Source of the DNA: a virus
Taxonomy: Duplodnaviria > Caudoviricetes
Virus record (IMG/VR): IMGVR_UViG_3300010340_000454
Location: 1-64,000 of that record
Direction: 5' to 3' (one strand)
Length of the DNA stretch: 64,000 nt
Part shown: in pieces, positions 1,035-60,890 of the stretch
Layout: every line of letters begins with the position of its first letter
How positions within the stretch are numbered: the first letter of the stretch is position 1
The notes under the pieces: model-generated
What the model saw: only the letters and a program-made list of their open reading frames with translations
What the model was told of the DNA's origin: nothing
Databases searched by the model: none
Made by a program: the position numbers and the translations under genes

Positions 1035-1062
1035 AAAAAAGGAAGGCCCTTTCGAGCCTTCC
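1035..1062 (-). terminator. Rho-independent terminator
   Basis: GGAAGGC stem (1041-1047/1056-1062) followed by T6 on the minus strand, just after the 1074-1499 ORF. Confidence 0.8.
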
Positions 1063-1073
1063 ACGTTTTTGTA

Positions 1074-1499
1074 TTAACGGCCTTGGGCAGTGTCTAGTGC
1101 GTTGTTAGCCACTTCGCTAACGTTCGCTAGGCCAATAGTCCCGCCAACGCCTTCAAGTGCAGTGCCATTAGAGTTAACTGCGGCGATCAGGGCATTCAGT
1201 TTTGCAGTTAACGTGGCAATAGCATTAGCTGCGGTAGCAACGTCAGACACCGCGCCTACGGTATCGCCACCTGACGTACCTGTAGAGCTATCCGTTAACG
1301 CAACAACTGCGGCAGCTACAGCAGGGGAGCCTGTAGAGACAATAGCGGGATTCGGGCTAATATCAATGTAGCCAGCAGCCTGTGCATCTAACATCGCCTG
1401 TGTAACAAAGCTAACGTCACGAGTAGCGCCTGCGCGAATAGTAACGCGGCCAACGTTAACGTCGTTTGTGGCGCTATTATTTTTTACGGAAAATGTCAT
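1074..1499 (-). CDS. Head fibre/decoration-like virion protein
   Basis: Ala/Thr/Gly-rich, with an ALTDSSTG...AIATLTAKLNALIAA short coiled-coil typical of head fibres; GGAG RBS. Confidence 0.5.
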   Translation of the reverse strand: MTFSVKNNSATNDVNVGRVTIRAGATRDVSFVTQAMLDAQAAGYIDISPNPAIVSTGSPAVAAAVVALTDSSTGTSGGDTVGAVSDVATAANAIATLTAKLNALIAAVNSNGTALEGVGGTIGLANVSEVANNALDTAQGR

Positions 1500-1539
1500 G
1501 TCATATACTCCAAGTTAAGGTTAAATATACCTTTCAAGC

Positions 1540-1854
1540 TTAGTGGCAAATGCCAGAAAACTTTAGGTGGTAGGTATTACCTTCGTCGTCATCGCATTCT
1601 ACTTTCTGAAGGTATAAGTGGAGATCCGCTTTCTGCGCTGCTGCCTTCAAGGCTATAATGCCGGACGCCATAGCTTCAATTCCAGTTTCCGAGTTAACAG
1701 CGACCTCCATGGTAAACTCGCCCGTATTATTATTGCTGTCACTTGTAAGCTCGCTATCGTTCTTTAGAAAGTCCTGAAAGAACTCCTGCATTGCATTAAA
1801 TTTCTTTGGGTCAGCGCCAGCAACTTCTCGGGCACGTACAAGTTTATAAGTCAT
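1540..1854 (-). CDS. Hypothetical protein
   Basis: ORF with AGGAGA RBS inside the operon. Confidence 0.7.
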   Translation of the reverse strand: MTYKLVRAREVAGADPKKFNAMQEFFQDFLKNDSELTSDSNNNTGEFTMEVAVNSETGIEAMASGIIALKAAAQKADLHLYLQKVECDDDEGNTYHLKFSGICH

Positions 1855-1874: not shown

Positions 1875-2144
1875 TTATTTACGGTATTCGTCTAATGCCA
1901 TATCGCGCTTTTTCACTTCGAGTTCTAGAATTTTTATAGACTCATAGTAAGCGGCACTTATTTGGTCATCGGCTGTTTCTCTAGTTACATCAGATAAAGG
2001 CAGCCTAGGCTTAACGAAACTAGGAGGAGGTTTTACTTTACCTGGAACTACTACCTGTACTTCCTTATACACAATTTTTTCTCGAACAAACAGGTCGCAC
2101 CCAGGCAAGAAAAGGCAAAGCACTACAACAAGTATAATCTTCAT
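1875..2144 (-). CDS. o-spanin (Rz1-like outer-membrane lipoprotein)
   Basis: Signal peptide with lipobox LPGC, Pro-rich segment; start overlaps the i-spanin stop (ATGA). Confidence 0.8.
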   Translation of the reverse strand: MKIILVVVLCLFLPGCDLFVREKIVYKEVQVVVPGKVKPPPSFVKPRLPLSDVTRETADDQISAAYYESIKILELEVKKRDMALDEYRK

Positions 2145-2584
2145 GGCTTAACCTCCCCGTATTCTTCTATTGCTCGTTGTCTTAGCCAATCCATCGCGCC
2201 TGAACACTCTTTGGGAATAGGCTTGCGTTTCAAAAGTATGTTTATCTGTGTTCTAAGACTAGAATCCATGACGGTGTATTCGTGCTGCAATTTACTAAGA
2301 CGAAATTCTAGGTCGTCTGCCTGCGCTAGGTATTCTTGTATCGAGGAATTCTGTTTATCAATTAGGTCGTTTGCTATTGTAAGCTGACCTTGTAACTGCT
2401 TTTTCTCTTGAGTTAACGCACCTATTTCAGTGTCTTTTTTAGAAATAGTTTCCGCTTTATTTTTTATGGAAACGTTCATAAAGAAAATTACCACTAGCAG
2501 TAAACCTATGACAACTCTATTTTTGTGCTTCCATAAGAAGCCAAAAAACTTTCCTATAGAGGCGAGGGCTGTTGCTGGATCCAT
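2141..2584 (-). CDS. i-spanin (Rz-like)
   Basis: Single N-terminal TM helix, long coiled-coil, C-terminal Cys; directly upstream of a lipoprotein gene. Confidence 0.8.
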   Translation of the reverse strand: MDPATALASIGKFFGFLWKHKNRVVIGLLLVVIFFMNVSIKNKAETISKKDTEIGALTQEKKQLQGQLTIANDLIDKQNSSIQEYLAQADDLEFRLSKLQHEYTVMDSSLRTQINILLKRKPIPKECSGAMDWLRQRAIEEYGEVKP

Positions 2585-2595
2585 GATTACCTCGA

Positions 2596-2904
2596 TTACT
2601 CGGTCATTTCAAATAAACAAACCACTACAAGTTTGTTGCTATCGAAAGCTACGCCTAGTGATCTAAACGACATTAACCCAGGGTAGTGGGCAGCAAAGAA
2701 ACGAACAATGTTCCGTTTTACGCTAGCTAACGCGTCTTCCGAAATAATGGATTTTTTTAGATAAACCATTATAGAAAATTTATCATCATCCAGGGAGGTG
2801 TCGATGCTGGCAATTTCGTATTGTAGTAAGGCTTTTATCAAGTCTCTTTTTATACTAGCTTCATCGAAGGCGTTTTTGTCTAGTACGATCTGTTCTCTTC
2901 GCAT
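2596..2904 (-). CDS. Hypothetical protein between PAS gene and spanins
   Basis: Start lies 2 nt after the PAS gene stop; tightly packed. Confidence 0.7.
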   Translation of the reverse strand: MRREQIVLDKNAFDEASIKRDLIKALLQYEIASIDTSLDDDKFSIMVYLKKSIISEDALASVKRNIVRFFAAHYPGLMSFRSLGVAFDSNKLVVVCLFEMTE

Positions 2905-2906
2905 TT

Positions 2907-3713
2907 TTAGTGGCTCTCTATGTTTCTCTTTACAGCTATATAGTAAGAAGGGACTTCAGGATCTTTATTCATAATAGGAGTGATGACGGTGTAGTCCTCT
3001 AGAATCTTGCCATCTTTAGACTCATTGAAGATTACTCCTACCCACGCCTTTTTAGCTTTCAGTTCTGCCCACATGTGTATGTACGTAGCGTTAGGGGTTA
3101 TTTCAGATCCTAGAAAACTTGGGTCCCGCCCTAAAGCCTCTTCTTTGCTATAGCCTGTGTGCAGAGTAAAAGCTTTATTAACGAAAAGTATTTTGTTTTC
3201 TTTGTTGGTTACCATTATAACATCTGAGGTAGCATCCAACGCTTGGGATAAAATTCTTATGTCCGCTTCATTCTGCAAGTCTCTGGTTATGTCTCTAACC
3301 AAAAACACGTAGTCGTTACCTGCTACGGTTACCGACGTGGAGACGGTTATAATGCGGCCTAGCATTGTTTGTACCTGATGCTCGAAGGGCTGTGTGTCTC
3401 TTCCAATCAGAACAGACCAATCATCTAGGAAAAGAGTGTTGACAGTTTTGCCTAGAATAAATTCTGCTGAAGTAGAAAACATTTTGCAGGCCGCCGCATT
3501 AAAGTCTACAATCAGGCCTTGCTGATTAACTTTAATGTAGGCATCCGACAAAATTTCGATTATTTGTCCGAGCAGCAGAGAATCCTTTTTCCACTGCATA
3601 ACCTTTTGCACGAAGTCATTAACTTCATCAGTTAATGCCGATACCGAAGCCTGTAGTGCTCGGCGTCCTGTTTTGTCAATCTTGAAATCAAAGTGACTTA
3701 CTTGAGCGTTCAT
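2907..3713 (-). CDS. Stand-alone tandem PAS-domain protein (PAS-B is NifL/Aer-like)
   Basis: PAS-A: LSDAYIKVNQQGLIVDFNAAACKMF...ILGK...FLVRDIT. PAS-B: ILFVNKAFTLHTGYSKEEALGRDPSFLGS...YIHMW...W.G...N.SKDG...ITPI...YIAVKRNI. No output domain. Confidence 0.85.
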   Translation of the reverse strand: MNAQVSHFDFKIDKTGRRALQASVSALTDEVNDFVQKVMQWKKDSLLLGQIIEILSDAYIKVNQQGLIVDFNAAACKMFSTSAEFILGKTVNTLFLDDWSVLIGRDTQPFEHQVQTMLGRIITVSTSVTVAGNDYVFLVRDITRDLQNEADIRILSQALDATSDVIMVTNKENKILFVNKAFTLHTGYSKEEALGRDPSFLGSEITPNATYIHMWAELKAKKAWVGVIFNESKDGKILEDYTVITPIMNKDPEVPSYYIAVKRNIESH

Positions 3714-3728
3714 CCTCGCTACCTCGTG

Positions 3729-4100
3729 CTAGTGTTTCATCATCCTGGAACTAACAATTATCTTAACTTCAACTAAGGCTATTCTTAGCTCTGTTAAGGC
3801 TCGTGCAGTATCTTTGGCGCTTTCATTGTATTCGGTGTTAATATCCTTAAGAGATTCAACGTATTGAGAAGTTAATTCCTGTAGCTGTTGTTGGGAAGCT
3901 TCTAAAGCATCAGATTGTTTAGCTAGTTGGGCCTGGTATTGTTTTTCTCTAATATATAAAGCTCGGCATAGGAACCAAATAGCGACCCCCATTCCTACAA
4001 TCACCAGTAATAAAATAGCTACAACGGCGTCTGACGCGGCTCCAGTAAATACATTATCTATGACGGAACCAAGATAATGTGTCAGTTTCGAGTCGCTCAT
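3729..4100 (-). CDS. Single-TM coiled-coil membrane protein (holin/antiholin-like candidate)
   Basis: TM helix VVAILLLVIVGMGVAIWFLC followed by a Gln-rich coiled-coil; AGGAGA RBS. Confidence 0.55.
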   Translation of the reverse strand: MSDSKLTHYLGSVIDNVFTGAASDAVVAILLLVIVGMGVAIWFLCRALYIREKQYQAQLAKQSDALEASQQQLQELTSQYVESLKDINTEYNESAKDTARALTELRIALVEVKIIVSSRMMKH

Positions 4101-4115
4101 GCCTTCTCCTATTTT

Positions 4116-5309
4116 TCAGAATCTAGGAAGTAACGTTGTCAAAGCCTGGCCTTGACTGTTTTGTTGCCTTAGAGGCAAGTGCCTATAGATTTCGTAAGGC
4201 TGAACTAAACGCGCATTAACTTCCCATCCATGAACGTTGGCGTTTCTATCTTTGAAGTCTGTATTATCCAATACACGCCAATATCTAGGAGACGACCTGT
4301 CGTGCAGGTCTACTATTATGTCCCACGGTTGAACGTTGTAAACTTTAGGGCTTACTAAGATTTGGACATTGCCTACTGCGTCAAGGACGTTCAAGTCACC
4401 GGTCTTAGTAAAGTGCGGATACTCTAAGTAAGTTGTTTCGCCAGTAAGATTAAACTGTATTTCCACGTGTGTAAATTGGGCACATCCGGATATGCGAATA
4501 ACTACAGGAGTTCCTATGCAATGTGCAAGCAAGGAAGCTTTGTCTAGTGGAACTAACCCGGTTGTTGTCTGGCCTATTTGCGCGGTTACTCCACTCAGTA
4601 AGGTTTGGTTATTCCAAAAGTTTAAAGCGTCTAACCTAGTAGCACCGAACGGCAGAGTAACTCGGAAGTCAACATAACCCGAAGGATCGTTCTGGCTAAA
4701 GCTGTGCGGTGTTACCATCTGGTCTACTGTGTATCCGAAAGCATTGTGTTCACTTACGCTAGAAAAAACTAAGCGCATTCCGTTGTGAACGTTAAATCCG
4801 CCTACAAAGCCTGTACCAAAACAGATACCGCACTTTCCTGTAGTAGCGCGGTCAGGTTCTAATTCGAGAAATGAAGAATTTAGATCGGCTTCGACCTCGG
4901 TAGATAATGGATTACCTAGGTCAACGTCAGGCTGAAAGGATTTCTTTTTGGTGTTGTTAGAGTCAACAGTGAAAACTTTTCCGGCGCGTTCCTGATTAGG
5001 GCGAATACCATAGTCCTCAATACCGAAGCCTGAATCCATTAACATGCTTTGTATATGGTCAGGTGCGGCATTTCCTTTATCATCCAACAGTGGAAGAACT
5101 GGTGAACTTTCTCTTCCTAAAGTACAGCTACACTTAACTCCAGTGTACATCTTATTGTACACAACACAAGGAAAGCCGTTTACTTGGAAAGCATTGTGGT
5201 AGCGTTCCTGCACAATAGGTGCAACTGTCTTTATCCTATCAATTGCAACAGGTACCGCCTTGGTATTTTTGTCGTGGAGGCGTCTGTTGCTTGGAAATTT
5301 AAATGCCAT
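4116..5309 (-). CDS. Neck/head-closure-like virion protein with Zn-binding insert
   Basis: Start reassigned to ATG 5309 (GGAGG RBS). CSC...CGICFGTGFVGGF motif and C-terminal DIIVD...WRV beta-barrel as in large-phage neck proteins. Confidence 0.5.
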   Translation of the reverse strand: MAFKFPSNRRLHDKNTKAVPVAIDRIKTVAPIVQERYHNAFQVNGFPCVVYNKMYTGVKCSCTLGRESSPVLPLLDDKGNAAPDHIQSMLMDSGFGIEDYGIRPNQERAGKVFTVDSNNTKKKSFQPDVDLGNPLSTEVEADLNSSFLELEPDRATTGKCGICFGTGFVGGFNVHNGMRLVFSSVSEHNAFGYTVDQMVTPHSFSQNDPSGYVDFRVTLPFGATRLDALNFWNNQTLLSGVTAQIGQTTTGLVPLDKASLLAHCIGTPVVIRISGCAQFTHVEIQFNLTGETTYLEYPHFTKTGDLNVLDAVGNVQILVSPKVYNVQPWDIIVDLHDRSSPRYWRVLDNTDFKDRNANVHGWEVNARLVQPYEIYRHLPLRQQNSQGQALTTLLPRF

Positions 5310-5345
5310 TTGATACCTCCAGACACTGCTGCCCACAGTGGTAAA

Positions 5346-5355
5346 CTGTAAAGTG
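5346..5355 (+). promoter_or_regulatory. CTGTAAAGTR motif (phage promoter/regulatory element)
   Basis: CTGTAAAGTG upstream of ruvC; recurs at 5 other intergenic sites. Confidence 0.55.
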
Positions 5356-5393
5356 ACAGTAGTAATCAACTTTGTAAAATTGCCTTTTTATTG

Positions 5394-5403
5394 CTAATTT
5401 CAT
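5394..5403 (+). promoter_or_regulatory. Putative late promoter CTAATTTCAT
   Basis: Matches the recurring CTAATTTHAT motif; upstream of ruvC. Confidence 0.6.
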
Positions 5404-5432
5404 ATTAGAGGTGAGACTTCACTCTTGCTAGT

Positions 5433-5442
5433 ATAAAATTAG
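5433..5442 (-). promoter_or_regulatory. Putative late promoter CTAATTTTAT driving the neck-PAS-spanin operon
   Basis: Reverse-strand motif copy upstream of ATG 5309. Confidence 0.65.
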
Positions 5443-5451
5443 TGAGGACGC

Positions 5452-6015
5452 ATGATAACAATTTTAGGTATTGACCCTGGCTCAGTTAACGCAGGGTATG
5501 CAATTCTGCGAGCTAGGGTTAAAAATAAGAAAATCCAATATAAGTTAGAAGAGTGTGGTAAGTTAAATAACCTTCTAAAGGATTTAAAGCATCCTCACAA
5601 GAAAGTATTAAAGGCGCATGTCAGAGAAGTAAAAAGCCTAGTAAATAAGTATAAGGCAGATTACGTGTTAACCGAACGGTATATGACAAGAGGTATCAAG
5701 GGTTCCACCATAGAAGCCGTCAACCAAATGTTAGGTGCCTTGGATATAGGGTTGTCGCAGGAAATAACGCAAATACCTGCCGCTACTTGGAAGAATCAGG
5801 TAAACAGAATCTTTGACTTAAAAGAATTTTACAAGAGCGTGAGGGTAGAGCCTCACGAAGTAGATGCGGTGTTGCAGGCATTTTGGTTAGCAGGTAAAAA
5901 ATTAAACGTAAACCTGTTAACTATTTTTAAAAGTAAGAAAACCATAAACCAGTTGCGTAAGGTAATAGAGTGCAAAACAACGAGCCAGCTAAAGAAAGAG
6001 AAAGCGAAAAAATAG
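5452..6015 (+). CDS. ruvC: RuvC-like Holliday junction resolvase
   Basis: ILGIDPGSVNAGYA, internal E (VLTERY), PAATWK and C-terminal HEVDA acidic motif. Confidence 0.85.
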   Translation: MITILGIDPGSVNAGYAILRARVKNKKIQYKLEECGKLNNLLKDLKHPHKKVLKAHVREVKSLVNKYKADYVLTERYMTRGIKGSTIEAVNQMLGALDIGLSQEITQIPAATWKNQVNRIFDLKEFYKSVRVEPHEVDAVLQAFWLAGKKLNVNLLTIFKSKKTINQLRKVIECKTTSQLKKEKAKK

Positions 6016-7266: not shown

Positions 7267-8364
7267 CTATGCAACATTTTTCATAGAAGATAATTTAGAA
7301 CGCAACTTATTAACAAACTTTATGCCCGACTCTTCCGGAACTTCCAAGAATGCCAAGGCTGTTTGCATATATGTTTTGAAGTCTACCCTCCCAAAGTAAT
7401 CATCATTCTCGTACCGAACTTTTCGGGCTTTCAAGTATTCAGAAAATTCCTTGTCAAACTCCCCACTAAGAAGCTTTATGAAGTGCCTCTTCTTCCCGCT
7501 GTACTTAGATGTTACCCTTTCAACACTGATCCGTGTAGTAAAGGAGTCATAGGACTTTCCATCAATATGGGTACCGTTCTCATCCGTCGCCAAAAAATCT
7601 TTAGCTTCAGGGGATGACATAGGTATTACTACGCGAGAGTCCTCGTTAGGCTTAGCTCCGCTCCTCAGACGGCCTCTGCCTTTTGTTGTATACTTCTCGA
7701 TATAGTTTATGCCAGAGTTATGCGCGGTACGCTTAACTATATTCATAAGGTGTTCCATGGATTCTATCCTAGGATACATGAACATTGCAGCCTGTAGGCT
7801 GTCGGCAGTCAGTTCCTTACAAATATCATCTGGATCTTGCCCGTGCATTTCGTAAATGAAACGCATCTTACGATACACAAACTTTCTAACAAACGCTACG
7901 TAGTCCTTGTGCATAGCTACGTATGCCAGAGCAGAATCAAACTCCAGTAAGGTTTTATTTTTGTACCCTTTCTTAACCATGTCTGCAAGCATCTTCTTGG
8001 AGGCGTCATCTAAAACTTTATGAATGTCCGCATCCATAGACTTTACGCCGTAGGACTTCAAAACCATTTTTGTTACGTGTGGCTTTTCTTTATACCAAAA
8101 GTACAGCCATAGCTTAAGGTTTTTCAGAAAGTAGCCTTTGCTTAACAACAAAGTGCGTCGTAACTCTATAACTCGAAAGTCTTTGTTTCCTATCGTCTCC
8201 CTAACTAAAGATGTAAATTTGGAAGCGGAAATTGCCTTAAACAAATACTGGATGCAATAGTTTATCAGCAACTTCTGGTCTCGGACAGGCAGAGAGCCAT
8301 AATCCAAATAGTACTTGCGTATTACTCGCTCTACAGAGTTTCCAGACTTTGTGAAACGAAGCAT
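7267..8364 (-). CDS. Putative phage sigma-factor-like protein
   Basis: FVRKFVYRKMRFIYEMHGQDPDDICKEL...AAMFMYPR...LMNIVKRTAHNSGINYIEK resembles sigma70/ECF region 2; the C-terminal helical segment could be region 4. Confidence 0.45.
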   Translation of the reverse strand: MLRFTKSGNSVERVIRKYYLDYGSLPVRDQKLLINYCIQYLFKAISASKFTSLVRETIGNKDFRVIELRRTLLLSKGYFLKNLKLWLYFWYKEKPHVTKMVLKSYGVKSMDADIHKVLDDASKKMLADMVKKGYKNKTLLEFDSALAYVAMHKDYVAFVRKFVYRKMRFIYEMHGQDPDDICKELTADSLQAAMFMYPRIESMEHLMNIVKRTAHNSGINYIEKYTTKGRGRLRSGAKPNEDSRVVIPMSSPEAKDFLATDENGTHIDGKSYDSFTTRISVERVTSKYSGKKRHFIKLLSGEFDKEFSEYLKARKVRYENDDYFGRVDFKTYMQTALAFLEVPEESGIKFVNKLRSKLSSMKNVA

Positions 8365-8367
8365 ATC

Positions 8368-9171
8368 TCACCAGGCTTTTTCGTTAGATTTTTTTGCAAA
8401 CCTTTTACGGTTGGATTCAATTACGAAAGGCTTGCTGCGGTCCTGAGTGCTAAAGAAAACGCCCTTAGGCTTCTTCTTTTTCTTGCGCTTGCCCTCTGTT
8501 GAGGCTTCATAAACGTTTAGCCACTCAGCAGGTGCGGTATCAATCGTTGGTGGTTCATAATCAATTTTGAATTGTTCGACATGAGGCACGCGGCCTTTCT
8601 TGTCTAAGAGTTCGGCAATAGGAAGCTTGCCAAAGCGCTTGCGCTCTTCTTCAGACATAAAGACCTTGCCTTCCTCTAGCAAGGAAGACTCCAAGGTTTT
8701 GTACTCGGAACGTGTTAAGACCGATGCCCTCAGCAGAGTCAAAGATGTATTATCTTTGGCTTTCTTGAGTTTTGACACCACGTAGACATGGTCTTCGGAA
8801 GCGCTTACAACATACCCTTTAAAATAATGGGATACGTAGTCTACGCCTAAGGAGAAATATACAGGCTGACCAAATTTCAGTTTTACTTTTGCGAGAGAAC
8901 CTCCCTGTCGTGCCAGAATGAATGAAAGAATACGAGCCTGTTTAGGTGTGAAATTCCTAATAAGGTTACCAAGAGTTTTAAGAAGCTCTGGATCTTCTAT
9001 GTCTTTAAGCTTAAAAACATCTGGAGTGTAACAATCTGGTGCGCGACTCCTAGCATCCACACCTATCTCTGCACATATCTTTTCAAATTTTGCTGGTCCT
9101 GTTTCAAAATGGACACAGTCGGCGCAGGTCATACCGAGACTTACCTTGTTGAATGAATCCTTTTTCAGCAT
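8368..9171 (-). CDS. Hypothetical protein with CxxCxH...C...C cluster
   Basis: ATG 9171 with AAGGA RBS preferred over TTG 9189; basic C-terminus. Confidence 0.7.
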   Translation of the reverse strand: MLKKDSFNKVSLGMTCADCVHFETGPAKFEKICAEIGVDARSRAPDCYTPDVFKLKDIEDPELLKTLGNLIRNFTPKQARILSFILARQGGSLAKVKLKFGQPVYFSLGVDYVSHYFKGYVVSASEDHVYVVSKLKKAKDNTSLTLLRASVLTRSEYKTLESSLLEEGKVFMSEEERKRFGKLPIAELLDKKGRVPHVEQFKIDYEPPTIDTAPAEWLNVYEASTEGKRKKKKKPKGVFFSTQDRSKPFVIESNRKRFAKKSNEKAW

Positions 9172-9207
9172 GATTTCTTTTTCCTTCAAGGAGGGCTGAT
9201 GGCATTT

Positions 9208-9663
9208 TTAGAAGGTTTGCTTCGCCAGCATCTGTAGAGCGTAGCGAACTAGCTCACCTTGACTCTTCTTCCCATAGTATCTCTGCAAGCTAACAAGCAA
9301 TTCGTGTTCCTCATAGGAAAAGGTATCACTATACTTAAACTTTTTGTTCAAGTTACCTTGAGACTCCAAGGCTGATTGCGCTCTACAAATTACTTGGGCG
9401 AGGTATAAACATCTGGCTCTACGATCTTCCTCTCGGTAAGGAAGATTAACAACTCCACGATAGAGCTTTGTTGCGGAATCATGTACTTTTGTGTGGCACC
9501 CATCGCACAAGGAAACGACTGGGCCGTTTGTACCTCCTAAATGACATGGAACTACATGGTGTTCCTCAAACGTCGTAAAGCCATCACGTTGTACGTGGCA
9601 CACCCAGCAGTGATCTAGGTATAGCGTAGATGTAATAGGCGAAACAACATAAGGTTTGACCAT
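9208..9663 (-). CDS. HNH endonuclease with C-terminal ribbon-helix-helix-like domain
   Basis: CWVC...EEHHVVP..LGG.N....LCDGCH; C-terminus FKYSDTFSYEEHELL...KSQGELVRYALQML. ATG 9663 has a GAGG RBS. Confidence 0.75.
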   Translation of the reverse strand: MVKPYVVSPITSTLYLDHCWVCHVQRDGFTTFEEHHVVPCHLGGTNGPVVSLCDGCHTKVHDSATKLYRGVVNLPYREEDRRARCLYLAQVICRAQSALESQGNLNKKFKYSDTFSYEEHELLVSLQRYYGKKSQGELVRYALQMLAKQTF

Positions 9664-9684
9664 AAGGAGCCTCAAATGAAACTA

Positions 9685-9710
9685 GCGGTGTTAGGGAAGC
9701 CTAACACCGC
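9685..9710 (-). terminator. Perfect 11-bp hairpin, probable terminator/processing site
   Basis: GCGGTGTTAGG-4 nt-CCTAACACCGC just downstream of the histone-like gene. Confidence 0.65.
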
Positions 9711-9729
9711 TTAGTTTGGTTTTGTGCTT

Positions 9730-10083
9730 TTAAGCGAACGCTGCCAGAACCGCAGCAGCAGCAGCCTTAGCAGCCTTCTTTGCAAGACCCTTGACTTCAC
9801 GCTCGGTCAGCCCAGCACCCTTTGCAGCCTTAGGAGCTTTCGCTGCCTTGGGAGCCTTGGGGGCCTTCACAACCTTAGCCTTGGATTCCTTCTTGGCTTT
9901 CTTGTCTGCCTTCTTTTCAGACTTTTCGGCCTTCACCTTCTTGTCTGCCTTCTTTTCAGACTTGTCTTTCTTAGCCTTCTTATCAGCCTTCTTGTCAGAC
10001 TTGTCCTTAGACTTTACCTTCTTTACCTTCTTTTCTTCTTCGCTCGAAGCGGAAACTTCCTTCGACTTGGACGACTTGGCCAT
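9730..10083 (-). CDS. Histone H1-like Lys/Ala-rich DNA-binding protein
   Basis: KKADKK and KAPKA repeats; AGGA RBS; sigma70 promoter upstream. Confidence 0.75.
   Translation of the reverse strand: MAKSSKSKEVSASSEEEKKVKKVKSKDKSDKKADKKAKKDKSEKKADKKVKAEKSEKKADKKAKKESKAKVVKAPKAPKAAKAPKAAKGAGLTEREVKGLAKKAAKAAAAAVLAAFA
9901..9963. repeat. 24-bp direct repeat inside the histone-like gene
   Basis: CTTGTCTGCCTTCTTTTCAGACTT at 9901-9924 and 9940-9963. Confidence 0.85.
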
Positions 10084-10188
10084 TTTGTCTTTTTCCTATA
10101 TAGGTTTATGGTACATTGTTAAAGCACCCTAGAGTTAGAGTGCATCAGTATGACTATCAGAAACAGATAGAATACACTGCGTATAAGC

Positions 10189-10217
10189 ATTATATCATAG
10201 TATTTCTGATAGTGCAA
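10189..10217 (-). promoter_or_regulatory. sigma70 promoter with extended -10
   Basis: TTGCAC-17 nt-TATAAT with TG at the extended position. Confidence 0.8.
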
Positions 10218-10239
10218 GTCTGATTCTTTACTGTCTACT

Positions 10240-10249
10240 TACTTTACAG
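10240..10249 (-). promoter_or_regulatory. CTGTAAAGTA motif
   Basis: Reverse-strand copy 22 nt upstream of the -35 box. Confidence 0.6.
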
Positions 10250-10271
10250 TTTTAGTAAACAGTCAAACCTG

Positions 10272-10817
10272 TTACAGCGTCGGTTGTTGTATGTTAATGG
10301 TTTGGCTATTAGAGTCATCAATAGGAAAAGAACCTGTTGAAGAGTGTATAGTTTCACCGGAAAACCGAATCAATCTGTCTTTATGCTTAGTAGAAAAGTC
10401 TTGAATGACTTGGTTAACCCACCAGCGATTCCTAATAGTAGAGTTAGGAATGTCAAAAGCAAGCGCTATGTGTGGAGAGTACTCGGCGTATGCCGACTTG
10501 GATCCACTGGCTTCTAAAACCTCGTTTCTTCTAGCTTCCAGTTCAGGAGAATCCAGAAGAATGATAAGGTCTTTTATACCAGCAACAGGATCCCACCAAA
10601 TCTGGGCGCCTTTAATGAATGCGGAGTAGACTTGCTCAGGCCTAGTAGGTATACCTGCTAGCGACCTATCAGCAAACAATATAGAAGCGTACATTTCCTC
10701 AGGGCGTACTGCGCGGTATGGGCAGGATACCAAATAAGGTGTAAATAAGAATCTAGTTTCTTGCTCCAAAGGTGTAACGAATAGATGGTTATTAGGGATA
10801 AACTTTATATTATCCAC
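10272..10817 (-). CDS. Acb1/T4 gp57B-like 2H-phosphoesterase-fold protein, degenerate active site
   Basis: VRPEEMYASILFA...IWW...LIILLDSPELEARR...SGSKSAYAEYSPHIALAFD aligns by eye with 57B; the two HxT motifs read YAS and HIA. Confidence 0.65.
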   Translation of the reverse strand: MDNIKFIPNNHLFVTPLEQETRFLFTPYLVSCPYRAVRPEEMYASILFADRSLAGIPTRPEQVYSAFIKGAQIWWDPVAGIKDLIILLDSPELEARRNEVLEASGSKSAYAEYSPHIALAFDIPNSTIRNRWWVNQVIQDFSTKHKDRLIRFSGETIHSSTGSFPIDDSNSQTINIQQPTL

Positions 10818-10828
10818 GAGTCACCTCA

Positions 10829-11770
10829 TTATTTAAACGCAAAATGCCATTGCTTAATGGTAAGAGGCTTATGCGTTCTATTTCGGAATCGGTCTACGTT
10901 CTGCTCCGGAACAAGCCAGTAATAGATGTAGCCTGAGTTCTTATACCCCATAGGCTTCCCTATAACAACTAACCGCTTGCCTAATTCTCGCTGGAGCTTT
11001 TCGATTACATAGGTTTTAAATGTCTCAGGGTCAACCTTCTTGGTCTTTAGGCGGTTCGCGTGAATGCCCAATACAAGCTGGTTTTCAAGAACTGAGTAAA
11101 AACCAATTGGCTTAACAGTGAAGCCGCCTTTCTCGAAGTCTTGAGGAGTTGCAATAGTTTCGGTCATAGCAACGATAGGCATTTTTTGCAGGATAAAGTC
11201 TCCCATTCTAAGGGAGTCTGCCTCTGTTGCAGGAAGCTGCCTAGCGTACTTCTGGTATTCGCTAATAGCGCCTTCGGATTTATTGATAACCTCTAAAACA
11301 CTATCTGTCCTTTCAGGCTTTCCATCATTGTAGTTTTTGCTGCTGTAGTAGTCAAAAACACCGGCAGCGCTTTCTAGCTGTTTGTTTTTCGATTGTTCCT
11401 TCTTTGCCCGGGCCTCTACAAGTGCCTTAAAGTTTTTTACTAACTTACTGGAGCGACTAGATGCCTTACTTAAGTAGGATGCAATTTCTTTGCGGTCTAC
11501 ATCATCGCGGGAAATTAGGTCTACCATACTGATGGTGCTATTATAAACTTTATCTAGGCGCAGAATTGCATCATCGCGTAGAGAGGACTTTGGAAAGTCG
11601 TCCTTCAACAGGTCTCGTGCTTTTTCAAGTGTAGCGCATACCAACCTAAGACTAGCCAGAGCGTTTACGTCCTGTTCGGCTAACTTGGACGCCTGCACGG
11701 AGGCAATCACCTTTTTAGCCTTACGCAAAGCTTCTTCAGAGGTCAGGGATTTTGCAGTCAACATACTCAT
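10829..11770 (-). CDS. Hypothetical protein (possible internal head protein)
   Basis: AGGAGA RBS, late-motif promoter, LESAA putative cleavage site. Confidence 0.7.
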   Translation of the reverse strand: MSMLTAKSLTSEEALRKAKKVIASVQASKLAEQDVNALASLRLVCATLEKARDLLKDDFPKSSLRDDAILRLDKVYNSTISMVDLISRDDVDRKEIASYLSKASSRSSKLVKNFKALVEARAKKEQSKNKQLESAAGVFDYYSSKNYNDGKPERTDSVLEVINKSEGAISEYQKYARQLPATEADSLRMGDFILQKMPIVAMTETIATPQDFEKGGFTVKPIGFYSVLENQLVLGIHANRLKTKKVDPETFKTYVIEKLQRELGKRLVVIGKPMGYKNSGYIYYWLVPEQNVDRFRNRTHKPLTIKQWHFAFK

Positions 11771-11792
11771 AACTCTTCTCCTGAAGTATGCT

Positions 11793-11824
11793 ATGAAATT
11801 AGTGAGGTTACAGTTACTTTACAG
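11793..11824 (-). promoter_or_regulatory. Tandem CTGTAAAGTA (11815-11824) and CTAATTTCAT (11793-11802) motifs
   Basis: Both recurring motifs occur in a 57-nt intergenic gap. Confidence 0.65.
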
Positions 11825-11827
11825 AGT

Positions 11828-13246
11828 TCACGCTAGCTTTAAGAAACCGTCCAGTTGGTTGGATACGTAGTTCCTGGGGTTCTTGGTTCTAGCTTTAAGC
11901 CCACTTCTTTCTTTTTCAACTTCGGCAATTTGGTTAACTAGGTTCTTATCTTCCAGCTTTCTCAACTGGCGTACTTTAAGGTCTAGGATTTTGTTAGCCT
12001 CATCTTCCGTTATCTTGAGACTCTTAGCAATAAACTTTACCAGTTCCTCTTCGGAGCAGTCCTTATCCAAGGCTTTGATAATCAAAGCTCGGTTTGCTAC
12101 TGCCTTACGGAGCAAGTTTAGGTAAGCAATTTTTTCATCTGCCTTACCGATCCAGTAATTGCACGCTTTTACCTCAAGCGCTATTCTGTAGTCAATCCAG
12201 TCCTGTAAGATTTGAGGCACAGTACTATTTGAAAGCTCTACTTTGGCATTCCCTTTCTTATCTAATGTTCTGGTTGTAACCTTAATGTCGAAGTTCTCAT
12301 TAGTAGAAAAGATATTCATTACCTTGTCTACCACTTTCTCCAGCTCTTTTCCTTTCAAGGATTTTTTTAGTTCTACCTTAACGGTAGCATATTTATCCTT
12401 CTTACCTGAGGCGTCATTCGGCTTAACTACTTCTTTCAGGTCAGCGCACTTCTCCAAGGCACGTTCTAGTGAGGTAATAGGAGCAAACTGGGTGATAACA
12501 ACGCAGTTTTTCTTAAGGTCTATTGTGTGGACAGACTTGAAAGGAATCTTTCCTTTGCCTGTCTTATAAAGTTGTTTAAGTACGGCTTTATCAGGAGTCG
12601 CCACACCACCATACTTCGTGGTAAATTCTAACTTCCGGCAAAGCTTGTAATCCAGCTTCTCTCCAGATAACGCTGCCTTCAATACTTTTACCACAGACGA
12701 AACGGTATAACTTGGAACGTAGGTGGACACGCCTACACCGATACCGAAAGTGCCATTAAGCAGAAGGTTAGGTAGCAGTGCAGGCAAGTTCAAAGGTTCT
12801 ACGTCAGACCCATCATAGTTATCAATGTATTCAATAGTAGGTAGATAAAACTTGTCGAAGAAAATCTTCTCTGAAAACTTATTCAACCTGGCTTCCGTAT
12901 ATCGCATTGCCGCAGGCGTAGTTTCAGAAAGGTTGCCCCAGTTGCCTTGACCCTCAAAAAGAGGAATAGGGCTGTTAACCAAGGTAACAAGACCTGAGTA
13001 AGTACCTGCGTCACCGTGAGGGTGAAACTTACCCATCGTCTCACCTACGACGCGTGCGGCTTTAACAAGCTTAGAGCCTGAGGTAGAACCCATCTTGTAG
13101 GCAGCCCATAGAAGCTTTCGGGTTACAGGCTTCAGGCCGTCAATCTTGCCAGGTACTGAGCGATCCTCGTTGACTGCTGTACCGTACTCTTTATAGAGTT
13201 CACACGCAATGTCGTCTAGCAAGGCGGTTTGTATTTTCGCACTCAT
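11828..13246 (-). CDS. gyrA: Type IIA topoisomerase subunit A (GyrA/ParC-like, no C-terminal pinwheel)
   Basis: DGLKPV.R, KAARVVGETMGKFHPHGD, AAMRYTEARL catalytic Tyr; only 472 aa. Confidence 0.92.
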   Translation of the reverse strand: MSAKIQTALLDDIACELYKEYGTAVNEDRSVPGKIDGLKPVTRKLLWAAYKMGSTSGSKLVKAARVVGETMGKFHPHGDAGTYSGLVTLVNSPIPLFEGQGNWGNLSETTPAAMRYTEARLNKFSEKIFFDKFYLPTIEYIDNYDGSDVEPLNLPALLPNLLLNGTFGIGVGVSTYVPSYTVSSVVKVLKAALSGEKLDYKLCRKLEFTTKYGGVATPDKAVLKQLYKTGKGKIPFKSVHTIDLKKNCVVITQFAPITSLERALEKCADLKEVVKPNDASGKKDKYATVKVELKKSLKGKELEKVVDKVMNIFSTNENFDIKVTTRTLDKKGNAKVELSNSTVPQILQDWIDYRIALEVKACNYWIGKADEKIAYLNLLRKAVANRALIIKALDKDCSEEELVKFIAKSLKITEDEANKILDLKVRQLRKLEDKNLVNQIAEVEKERSGLKARTKNPRNYVSNQLDGFLKLA

Positions 13247-20810: not shown

Positions 20811-20820
20811 CTAATTTTAT
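20811..20820 (+). promoter_or_regulatory. Putative late promoter CTAATTTTAT
   Basis: Upstream of the head operon. Confidence 0.7.
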
Positions 20821-20882
20821 ATCAGAGAACGCGAAGTTAGCTTCGTACTCTCAAAATCCATCTACCAAAGTTGGAGTTTATT

Positions 20883-39978: not shown

Positions 39979-40629
39979 ATGTTTAAGATAACCAAAGAAC
40001 TATTTAAGGTTGCTGCACCTACATGTAAAACGCCTGACGTTTTTGTTGACTTGTTGAACGAACACTTACCTAAGTTCGGTATAGATACAAGATTAGAGGT
40101 AGTACACTTTTTGGCCCAGTACTCGCATGAGACTTCGGACTTTAACAAATTTATTGAGAATACAAACTACACATCTCCTGAAAGGCTAGTGGCCATCTTT
40201 GGTAAGTACTTCTACTTAAATACCAAAACTCCTCGTAAGTATGATGCTAGGCAGTATGCAGGGAAGCCCGAAGCTATTGCTAACATTGTTTACGCTAACC
40301 GAAACGGTAATGGAGGGCCTGAAACAGGCCATGGGTTTAAGTACAGAGGAAGAGGCGCTTGTCATTTAACCTTTCTAGATAACTATAAGGCATTTCAAAA
40401 AGACATGGGCAAACTCTTCCCAAAGTCAGTAGTTGAGGCTCCTGAACAAATAGAGCAACCTTTTGGTAGCGTGATGGCAGGAATTTGGTACTGGAACTAT
40501 AGGAAAATTAACATTGCAGCTACAAAGAACTCTGTCGAAGCGGTATCTCGTTTAGTAAATGGAGGTACTAACGGACTATCTGATAGAATAGCTAGAACAA
40601 ACAAGCTATTATCCTACACGAAAACCTGA
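39979..40629 (+). CDS. Endolysin, glycoside hydrolase family 19
   Basis: HFLAQYSHETS...ENTNY...IANIVYANRNGNG...G.KYRGRG..HLT..DNY...VNGG.NGL.DR. Confidence 0.9.
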   Translation: MFKITKELFKVAAPTCKTPDVFVDLLNEHLPKFGIDTRLEVVHFLAQYSHETSDFNKFIENTNYTSPERLVAIFGKYFYLNTKTPRKYDARQYAGKPEAIANIVYANRNGNGGPETGHGFKYRGRGACHLTFLDNYKAFQKDMGKLFPKSVVEAPEQIEQPFGSVMAGIWYWNYRKINIAATKNSVEAVSRLVNGGTNGLSDRIARTNKLLSYTKT

Positions 40630-40637
40630 GGCTATTT

Positions 40638-40979
40638 ATGGAAATAATTTATGAGACTAAGACTGTTTTTCTTCTAGGTATAGTGTTTATAATAGGCCTA
40701 GTCACTGGTATGACATTGGCTACCCGTAAGCAAATAAACTTATTAGATTTGGTAGTTGGAAAAGATGGTAAATTATCTGCGGCAAGGCTTTGGGAGAACA
40801 TTGCTCTAGCAGTAGGTGTCTGGGCTTTTGTATATAGCGTGTACACCAGAATAATAACAGAGGCCATATGGTTAATCTTCCTAGCGTCTTATACAGGTAA
40901 TAAACTTTTAGGTAATCTTATACATGCCAAATATACAGGCAACAGCGAATCCAACAAAAACGATTCTAGCTCTGCCTGA
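40638..40979 (+). CDS. Holin candidate (about 3 TM helices)
   Basis: Small, multi-TM, adjacent to the endolysin; DL....DGKLS..RLW motif. Confidence 0.65.
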   Translation: MEIIYETKTVFLLGIVFIIGLVTGMTLATRKQINLLDLVVGKDGKLSAARLWENIALAVGVWAFVYSVYTRIITEAIWLIFLASYTGNKLLGNLIHAKYTGNSESNKNDSSSA

Positions 40980-40989
40980 CTAATTTAAT
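40980..40989 (+). promoter_or_regulatory. Putative late promoter CTAATTTAAT
   Basis: Upstream of the sheath operon. Confidence 0.65.
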
Positions 40990-40998
40990 ACTGACAAT

Positions 40999-60839: not shown

Positions 60840-60849
60840 CTAATTTAAT
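60840..60849 (+). promoter_or_regulatory. Putative late promoter CTAATTTAAT
   Basis: After a terminator, upstream of 60891. Confidence 0.65.
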
Positions 60850-60890
60850 AATAGCAATATACACTTGCAATTAACAAGAGGTTAACTCAA

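Follow-up and report, generated by a model that had tools for sequence, protein, structure and literature searches.

A stand-alone tandem-PAS protein with a NifL/MmoS-type domain, encoded next to spanin-like genes in an uncultured jumbo myophage, and its plausible link to lysis

The first 64 kb of IMG/VR virus record IMGVR_UViG_3300010340_000454 (114,429 bp in full, CheckV completeness 45%; this 64-kb stretch is hereafter called the window) encodes, on the minus strand at positions 2907 to 3713, a 268-amino-acid (aa) protein that consists of two PAS domains with no output domain and lies in a tightly packed gene unit upstream of a pair of spanin-like genes. The gene is real, well conserved, and unusual for a phage, and the function that we propose for it is plausible. 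We tentatively read its product as a soluble tandem-PAS sensor of the cytoplasm, restricted to a single lineage of uncultured jumbo myophages, that would make contact with a neighboring phage protein and probably affect lysis; as a composite, this reading is possible, but it stops short of being probable. Genes for a tail sheath, tail tube, baseplate, topoisomerase II, and endolysin identify the source as a large myophage. Its nearest cultured relatives are jumbo phages of Pseudomonadota of the phiRSL1, Motura, and BcepSauron type, with a tail sheath identity of only ~35%, and blastn against 50,697 phage records returned no DNA-level match to the window.

The PAS protein has no output domain and is strongly conserved in its lineage

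The protein was characterized by Pfam, PDB sequence search, AlphaFold2 (AF2) modeling, Foldseek, and alignment of its family. Pfam identified two PAS domains in the 268-aa product (PF00989, 64.3 bits against a cutoff of 22.6; PF13426, 59.6 bits against a cutoff of 27) and no kinase, GGDEF, EAL, or helix-turn-helix (HTH) domain. In the AF2 model, which drew on nine relatives, a helix (residues 14 to 55) leads into PAS-A (residues 57 to 141; positions 3291 to 3545, minus strand), a linker helix (residues 143 to 159), and PAS-B (residues 165 to 262; positions 2928 to 3221, minus strand), and the chain terminates at residue 268, 4 to 6 residues past PAS-B. Each PAS unit is modeled as a five-stranded antiparallel sheet with flanking helices (predicted local distance difference test score, pLDDT, of about 80 to 89 in the cores), and Foldseek matched the model to DosP, MmoS, NifL, FixL, and HIF/ARNT. 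PAS-A is short, resembles PAS domains of hybrid histidine kinases, and is without the flavin-clade signature. Neither a transmembrane segment nor a signal peptide is predicted in the protein.

Among 5.8 billion proteins searched we found eight relatives with 42 to 90% identity, all of them also lacking an output domain; together with the window protein they form a family of nine members, 268 to 289 aa long. PAS-B is the best-conserved region of the family alignment (mean pairwise identity of 65%, 35 of 104 columns invariant), and the N-terminal tail is the least conserved. The synteny comparison is based on L020, a 91-kb metagenome contig that is the single relative whose DNA neighborhood was read. 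Between the window and L020, the PAS proteins are 52% identical, near the values for the divergently transcribed RuvC-like gene (58%) and for the 400-aa protein encoded by the first gene of the unit (57%), and far above those for a neighboring protein with one transmembrane domain (TMD) and a coiled coil, here called TM-CC (30%), a 102-aa protein (38%), and the spanin candidates (22 to 34%). Judging from this comparison, the PAS gene is clearly under purifying selection.

PAS proteins appear to be rare in phages. No PHROG family matched the protein; tblastn against the same phage records gave weak matches only, to Aer/methyl-accepting chemotaxis protein (MCP) cargo genes of P1-like elements and to unannotated Listeria phage fragments; and IMG/VR scans, run with the PAS and 400-aa proteins and with an alignment of each, recovered no relatives. 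A scan of GTDB genomes with the PAS protein yielded only cellular multidomain PAS proteins, at 21 to 44% identity. The architecture as such is not new, given that bacteria commonly have stand-alone tandem-PAS proteins of similar size. Searches of the whole 114-kb record found no further PAS gene and no HATPase_c or GGDEF gene.

PAS-B belongs to the NifL/MmoS flavin clade

By sequence and predicted fold, PAS-B is a member of the NifL/MmoS flavin clade. Its best PDB sequence matches are MmoS (3EWK, E = 3.8e-22) and NifL PAS1 (2GJ3, E = 3.5e-16), with LOV domains next and Aer weaker; Foldseek superimposed the modeled domain on 2GJ3 with a TM score of 0.87, a root mean square deviation of 1.8 Å, and 32% identity; and the top NCBIfam ranks were taken by the DibA phosphodiesterase PAS region and NifL (NifL, 6.6e-21). 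The determinants of flavin adenine dinucleotide (FAD) binding in cluster 4, the cluster of NifL, are a Trp on helix F-alpha and an Asn, touching the isoalloxazine ring, that serves as the second conserved contact (Xing et al., PMC10468136). In a HMMER alignment, W87 and N102 of NifL correspond to W215 and N230 of PAS-B, both of which are the same in all nine family members, and the invariant residues of PAS-B also include HTGY and KDG. MmoS PAS-B, which is not known to bind FAD, carries a Gln at the aligned Trp position.

Beside N5 of the flavin stand Glu70 of NifL, His132 of MmoS, His53 of Aer, and the photoactive Cys of LOV domains (in part after PMC9668731). At this position PAS-B has a proline instead of a polar residue, Pro198, which is invariant in the family. 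Furthermore, the Trp/Asn pair also occurs in PAS2 of PA0285 from Pseudomonas, a domain for which no FAD binding was seen in vitro (PMC10874727). Because of the proline and this counterexample, we consider flavin binding by PAS-B to be roughly an even call.

Two other types of PAS chemistry were considered and rejected. PAS-B reads GRDPSFLG where LOV domains have GxNCRFLQ, Pro198 standing in place of the photoactive Cys; LOV photochemistry is ruled out because there is no Cys at that position. A heme PAS domain of the FixL/DosP type is ruled out as well, as the candidate for the proximal F-alpha His (His213) is present in only two of the nine family members.

Among the closest cellular relatives of PAS-B are two Campylobacterota-like PAS-PAS-GGDEF-EAL proteins on other contigs (L022, positions 2817 to 5684; L024, positions 9135 to 12002), whose identity to PAS-B is 35 to 38%. 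Both have a "GxNP" variant, with Pro at the position of NifL Glu70, which suggests a sizeable cellular subfamily that shares the proline.

The PAS gene lies in a compact eight-gene unit

Eight minus-strand genes follow one another in the order 400-aa protein, TM-CC, PAS protein, 102-aa protein, i-spanin-like protein, o-spanin-like protein, 104-aa protein, and 141-aa protein. From the 400-aa gene through the o-spanin gene, neighbors overlap or are separated by no more than 15 nt; ahead of the last two genes the spacing is no more than 40 nt. A promoter-like motif, CTAATTTTATA, lies upstream of the unit (5432 to 5442, minus strand), and a terminator-like GC hairpin with a T-run (1041 to 1062, minus strand) closes it. 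A twin copy of the motif (5394 to 5404, plus strand) faces the divergent RuvC-like gene.

Exact CTAATTTNATA sites occur six times in the window against 0.35 expected, at 5394 to 5404 (plus), 5432 to 5442 (minus), 11792 to 11802 (minus), 20811 to 20821 (plus), 40980 to 40990 (plus), and 60840 to 60850 (plus). All six are intergenic, each facing its downstream gene, and the motif is usually preceded by CA; L020 keeps the divergent pair, at 8238 (plus) and 8274 (minus). CTAATTTNATA is probably a promoter element of the phage lineage's own.

Much of the first-pass annotation of this DNA held up. All of its open reading frames (ORFs) lie on the minus strand at the coordinates that it gave, and it was right to describe an output-less tandem-PAS protein that ends just after PAS-B, to liken PAS-B to NifL and MmoS, and to note that its gene is co-oriented and tightly packed with those of a single-TM coiled-coil protein and a spanin-like pair. 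Two of its labels are unsupported. It had called the motif ahead of the unit "late-type"; the motif recurs, however, in front of a tail-gene region, an ATPase gene, and the RuvC-like gene, so its sequence points to no particular temporal class. It had also named the product of the first gene a neck protein; that product belongs to phrog_21298, a family of unknown function, and a search with the 400-aa profile returned no PDB relative.

The two genes that flank the PAS gene encode lineage-specific proteins

TM-CC (3729 to 4100, minus strand) is a 123-aa protein with a conserved acidic N-terminal tail, one strong TMD (residues 26 to 44), and a C-terminal coiled coil. In each of the five orthologues, Lys and Arg together number 0 to 1 in the 15 residues ahead of the TMD and 3 to 5 in the 15 residues behind it. 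Because of this positive-inside charge bias, which is opposite to that of the i-spanins, TM-CC is predicted to have its N terminus outside and its C terminus inside, with the coiled coil in the cytoplasm. A split sensor made of TM-CC and the PAS protein would then be physically possible, since the coiled coil and the PAS protein are predicted to share a compartment.

No Pfam family matched TM-CC above the cutoff, the TM-CC profile had no PDB relative, and tblastn of TM-CC and of the i-spanin candidate against the phage records found nothing. The relatives of TM-CC are confined to the lineage, and for two of its three close homologue clusters the longest contig is equal in size to that of a PAS homologue cluster (21,501 and 16,762 bp). 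By language-model features TM-CC resembles small viral TM proteins, and a BhlA-type holin cluster is a subthreshold lead (0.89); its resemblance to lysis proteins is at the class level only, that of an N-terminal TMD plus a coiled coil. Two more specific identities were rejected: TM-CC and the i-spanin candidate are not paralogues (hhalign probability of 1%), and the place of TM-CC in the genome does not mark it as a holin or antiholin, as it lies 36 kb from the endolysin gene, whose neighbor encodes a different, 113-aa multi-TM protein.

On the other side of the PAS gene, the 102-aa orphan (2596 to 2904, minus strand) is modeled with a circularly permuted ferredoxin-like fold (alpha-beta-beta-alpha-beta-beta; pLDDT of 83, predicted TM score of 0.73), and it has only two representatives among 1.84 billion searched. 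The matches to the modeled fold are generic (S6 permutants and the C-terminal domains of PilO/PulM) and point to no function. The gene starts 2 nt after the PAS stop codon, and in L020 it overlaps that stop codon by 4 nt, which suggests coupled translation of the two genes.

The unit holds a likely spanin pair

Next in the unit is an i-spanin-like gene (2141 to 2584, minus strand), whose 147-aa product has an N-terminal TMD (residues 24 to 42), an otherwise helical and coiled-coil-like chain, and the conserved C-terminal motif DWLRQRAIE. The start of the following gene (1875 to 2144, minus strand) overlaps its stop codon and encodes an o-spanin-like lipoprotein of 89 aa with a signal peptide, a lipobox (LPGC; LCGC in L020), and a Pro-rich stretch; both candidates have conserved C-terminal motifs. 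Profile matches are weak (phrog_89, E = 3.5e-4; TIGR03495 LysB, 18 bits against a cutoff of 92.75), and it is because of the architecture, a TMD and coiled coil followed by an overlapping lipobox and Pro-rich gene, that we call the pair a likely two-component spanin of the Rz/Rz1 type. No other spanin candidate was found in the window, and none beside the endolysin gene. The endolysin (216 aa; 39979 to 40629, plus strand) was identified by its match to phrog_181 (E = 1e-59), and directly after it comes the gene for the 113-aa multi-TM protein (phrog_1322; 40638 to 40979, plus strand), a holin candidate with two to three hydrophobic segments; the two are likely a holin-endolysin pair. As far as gene content tells, the eight-gene unit holds likely spanins and is not a classical lysis cassette.

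In L020, the order 400-aa protein, TM-CC, PAS protein, 102-aa protein, i-spanin, o-spanin, and two small genes is kept. In BCSR5, phiRSL1, BcepSauron, and vB_VcorM_GR7B, the homologue of the 400-aa gene is followed by unrelated genes; the block of five genes next to it is therefore specific to the lineage. An insertion of the block into a conserved module is not demonstrable, as the downstream genes are not homologous to those in BCSR5 or phiRSL1.

Proposed function and competing explanations

We propose that PAS-B holds FAD or a related small ligand and that the PAS protein would thereby report the redox or energy state of the infected cell. Because the protein has no output domain and is strongly conserved all the same, its output would be contact with other proteins, made by the beta-sheets of the PAS domains, by the linker helix, or by the long helix at the N terminus. 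Like many PAS proteins, it may form dimers. The likeliest partners would be the flanking lineage-specific proteins, TM-CC and/or the ferredoxin-like 102-aa orphan, and by way of these the PAS protein may influence something that happens at the membrane during infection. The timing of lysis comes first among the candidates for this, since the spanin pair follows in the same unit. A cytoplasmic redox or energy sensor that acts on a neighboring phage protein and probably affects lysis is our best explanation, and we advance it as a tentative one. A narrower version has a flavin redox sensor bind to a membrane-anchored phage protein and so gate the spanin or holin step in response to the host's respiratory or energy state; in that full form it is unlikely.

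Several observations weigh against the proposed sensor. The link to lysis is plausible by gene position, which is guilt by association. The first-pass annotation had spoken of a spanin/lysis operon; the spanin-like pair is indeed in the unit, but the endolysin and holin candidate are encoded 36 kb from it on the opposite strand, and some genes of the unit bear no lysis signature. The same annotation had looked to conserved synteny of the TM protein, PAS, and spanin genes as a check, and that order is kept in L020; however, the genes flanking the unit are collinear there too, so this synteny is not specific and the order is uninformative about functional coupling, and the distant cultured relatives keep the 400-aa gene and have none of the five adjoining genes. 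As for the partner, the topology of TM-CC comes from a single criterion, the positive-inside rule, and its weak PHROG matches are to i-spanins, which have the opposite topology. No fused TM-CC-PAS form turned up in a "near"-length search with the PAS protein or a "longer" search with TM-CC, which is weak evidence on the same side. Finally, Pro198 and the PA0285 result described above count against a flavin cofactor.

Some of these same points are what one would expect if the protein were a sensor or regulator of another phage process (transcription, replication, assembly, or dormancy) and its place two genes upstream of the spanins were incidental. The unit is mixed, with the zinc-motif-bearing 400-aa protein at one end and an Ala/Gly/Thr-rich 141-aa protein at the other; its promoter-like motif is shared with the tail-gene region, the RuvC-like gene, and the ATPase gene; and collinearity throughout the L020 region leaves no specific synteny signal. 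On the other hand, both neighbors of the PAS gene are lineage specific and travel with it, one of them is anchored in the membrane and built as small phage lysis or membrane proteins typically are, and the 114-kb record shows no evident partner that binds DNA or is an enzyme, the searches for HATPase_c and GGDEF having come back empty. We regard a role in another process as possible but less than probable, only slightly behind our best explanation.

It is quite improbable that the protein is a host takeover decoy, the alternative raised in the first-pass annotation, one that would heterodimerize with host PAS kinases, cyclic di-GMP (c-di-GMP) enzymes, or aerotaxis receptors and so block or hijack their signaling. 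The domains do have the right kind of relatives: PAS-A is similar to PAS domains in hybrid histidine kinases of the Shewanella/Oleispira type, PAS-B to those in GGDEF-EAL proteins and NifL (25 to 38% identity), and the structural neighbors are the tandem PAS modules of such enzymes. Yet the identity to any cellular PAS domain is low, at 38% or less, so the protein mimics no specific host target; the family is conserved within the phage lineage and does not track a host gene; and the gene sits inside a tight multigene unit with spanins, which is not a typical early host takeover cluster. Equally improbable is that the PAS folds serve as a ligand-free dimerization or scaffold adaptor that links TM-CC to the 102-aa protein or to virion or membrane components, for although Pro198, the failure of the PA0285 Trp/Asn pair to confer FAD binding (PMC10874727), and the many PAS domains that are ligand-free dimerization modules, such as NifL PAS2 (PMC3466315), would all fit, the invariant residues concentrate in PAS-B and include W215, N230, HTGY, and KDG, as expected of a ligand pocket that has been kept.

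Comparison with known systems

The closest matches in sequence and fold, NifL PAS1 (2GJ3) and PAS-A/PAS-B of MmoS (3EWK), have the FAD-contacting Trp and Asn in common with the phage PAS-B, and MmoS is, like the phage protein, built on a tandem-PAS module. Both NifL and MmoS have kinase-type output domains, whereas the phage protein has none; the flavin PAS domain comes first in NifL and last in the phage protein; and in place of NifL Glu70 or MmoS His132 the phage PAS-B has its invariant Pro.

A nearer parallel in design is the bipartite energy-taxis system CetA/CetB of Campylobacter jejuni (PMC2628428), in which a stand-alone PAS protein of the flavin clade is cotranscribed with a separate membrane protein that has a cytoplasmic helical domain, the arrangement that the first-pass annotation proposed for TM-CC and the PAS protein. 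CetA, however, has a two-helix hairpin, a HAMP domain, and a chemoreceptor signaling domain, whereas TM-CC has one TMD, a plain coiled coil, and no Che partners; the phage pair may thus be a functional analogue of CetA/CetB, not a member of that system. Short LOV proteins (PpSB1-LOV, 3SW1; DsLOV, 4KUK), which are among the PDB matches of the phage protein, are likewise output-less and signal through helical extensions and partner binding; they differ in that their photoactive Cys (NCRFLQ) is a Pro in the phage protein and in that the phage protein has two PAS domains.

In T4 lysis inhibition, the holin T is reportedly held back by a periplasmic antiholin, RI, and a cytoplasmic antiholin, RIII, when superinfection is sensed. 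If our best explanation is right, the PAS protein would resemble RIII as a soluble cytoplasmic protein that tunes a membrane lysis protein by binding to it directly; RIII has no sequence or fold relation to the phage PAS protein, T4 senses superinfection and not redox state, and no holin gene adjoins the PAS gene. VqmA of vibriophage VP882 (PMC8284805) is a phage PAS receptor that couples a cellular signal to the lysis decision. VqmA, though, belongs to a temperate phage, where it controls transcription through its HTH output, whereas the PAS protein described here is without a DNA-binding domain and comes from a jumbo myophage. In full-text searches of a paper library, no study came up in which a PAS protein takes part in the control of phage lysis.

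In textbook models, lysis timing is set by the accumulation of holin, and few systems modulate it, T4 lysis inhibition being one example. If the proposed function is true, a lytic jumbo phage would read host physiology directly, by means of a redox sensor of the NifL/MmoS clade; such direct reading is suggested because selection on the PAS gene is as strong as on core genes and because the gene is predicted to share a unit with a membrane protein and spanins. Should the narrower gating version be true, the phage would have a cytoplasmic antiholin-like system coupled to a sensor, for which no counterpart has been described. Whether or not the link to lysis holds, a viral stand-alone flavin-type PAS protein with two orphan partners would be a compact system in which to study signaling by output-less PAS proteins.

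The first and last genes of the unit

The first gene (4116 to 5309, minus strand) encodes the protein referred to above as the 400-aa protein, which is 397 aa long and contains CxC and CGICxGxG motifs; in the window these read CSC and CGICFGTGFVGG, and they look like zinc ribbon motifs. The ORF finder had chosen a TTG start at 5369 (ORF 4116 to 5369), probably 20 codons too far upstream; the ATG at 5309 is the probable start because the L020 protein begins at the equivalent Met. Homologues of this protein occur in phiRSL1, BcepSauron, PaBG, and Erwinia and Dickeya jumbo phages. The last two genes (1074 to 1854, minus strand) encode the 104-aa protein and the Ala/Gly/Thr-rich 141-aa protein and have no assigned function. 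The 141-aa protein (1074 to 1499, minus strand), whose only match is a weak one to a PHROG of unknown function, has the look of a fibrous or decoration-type protein.

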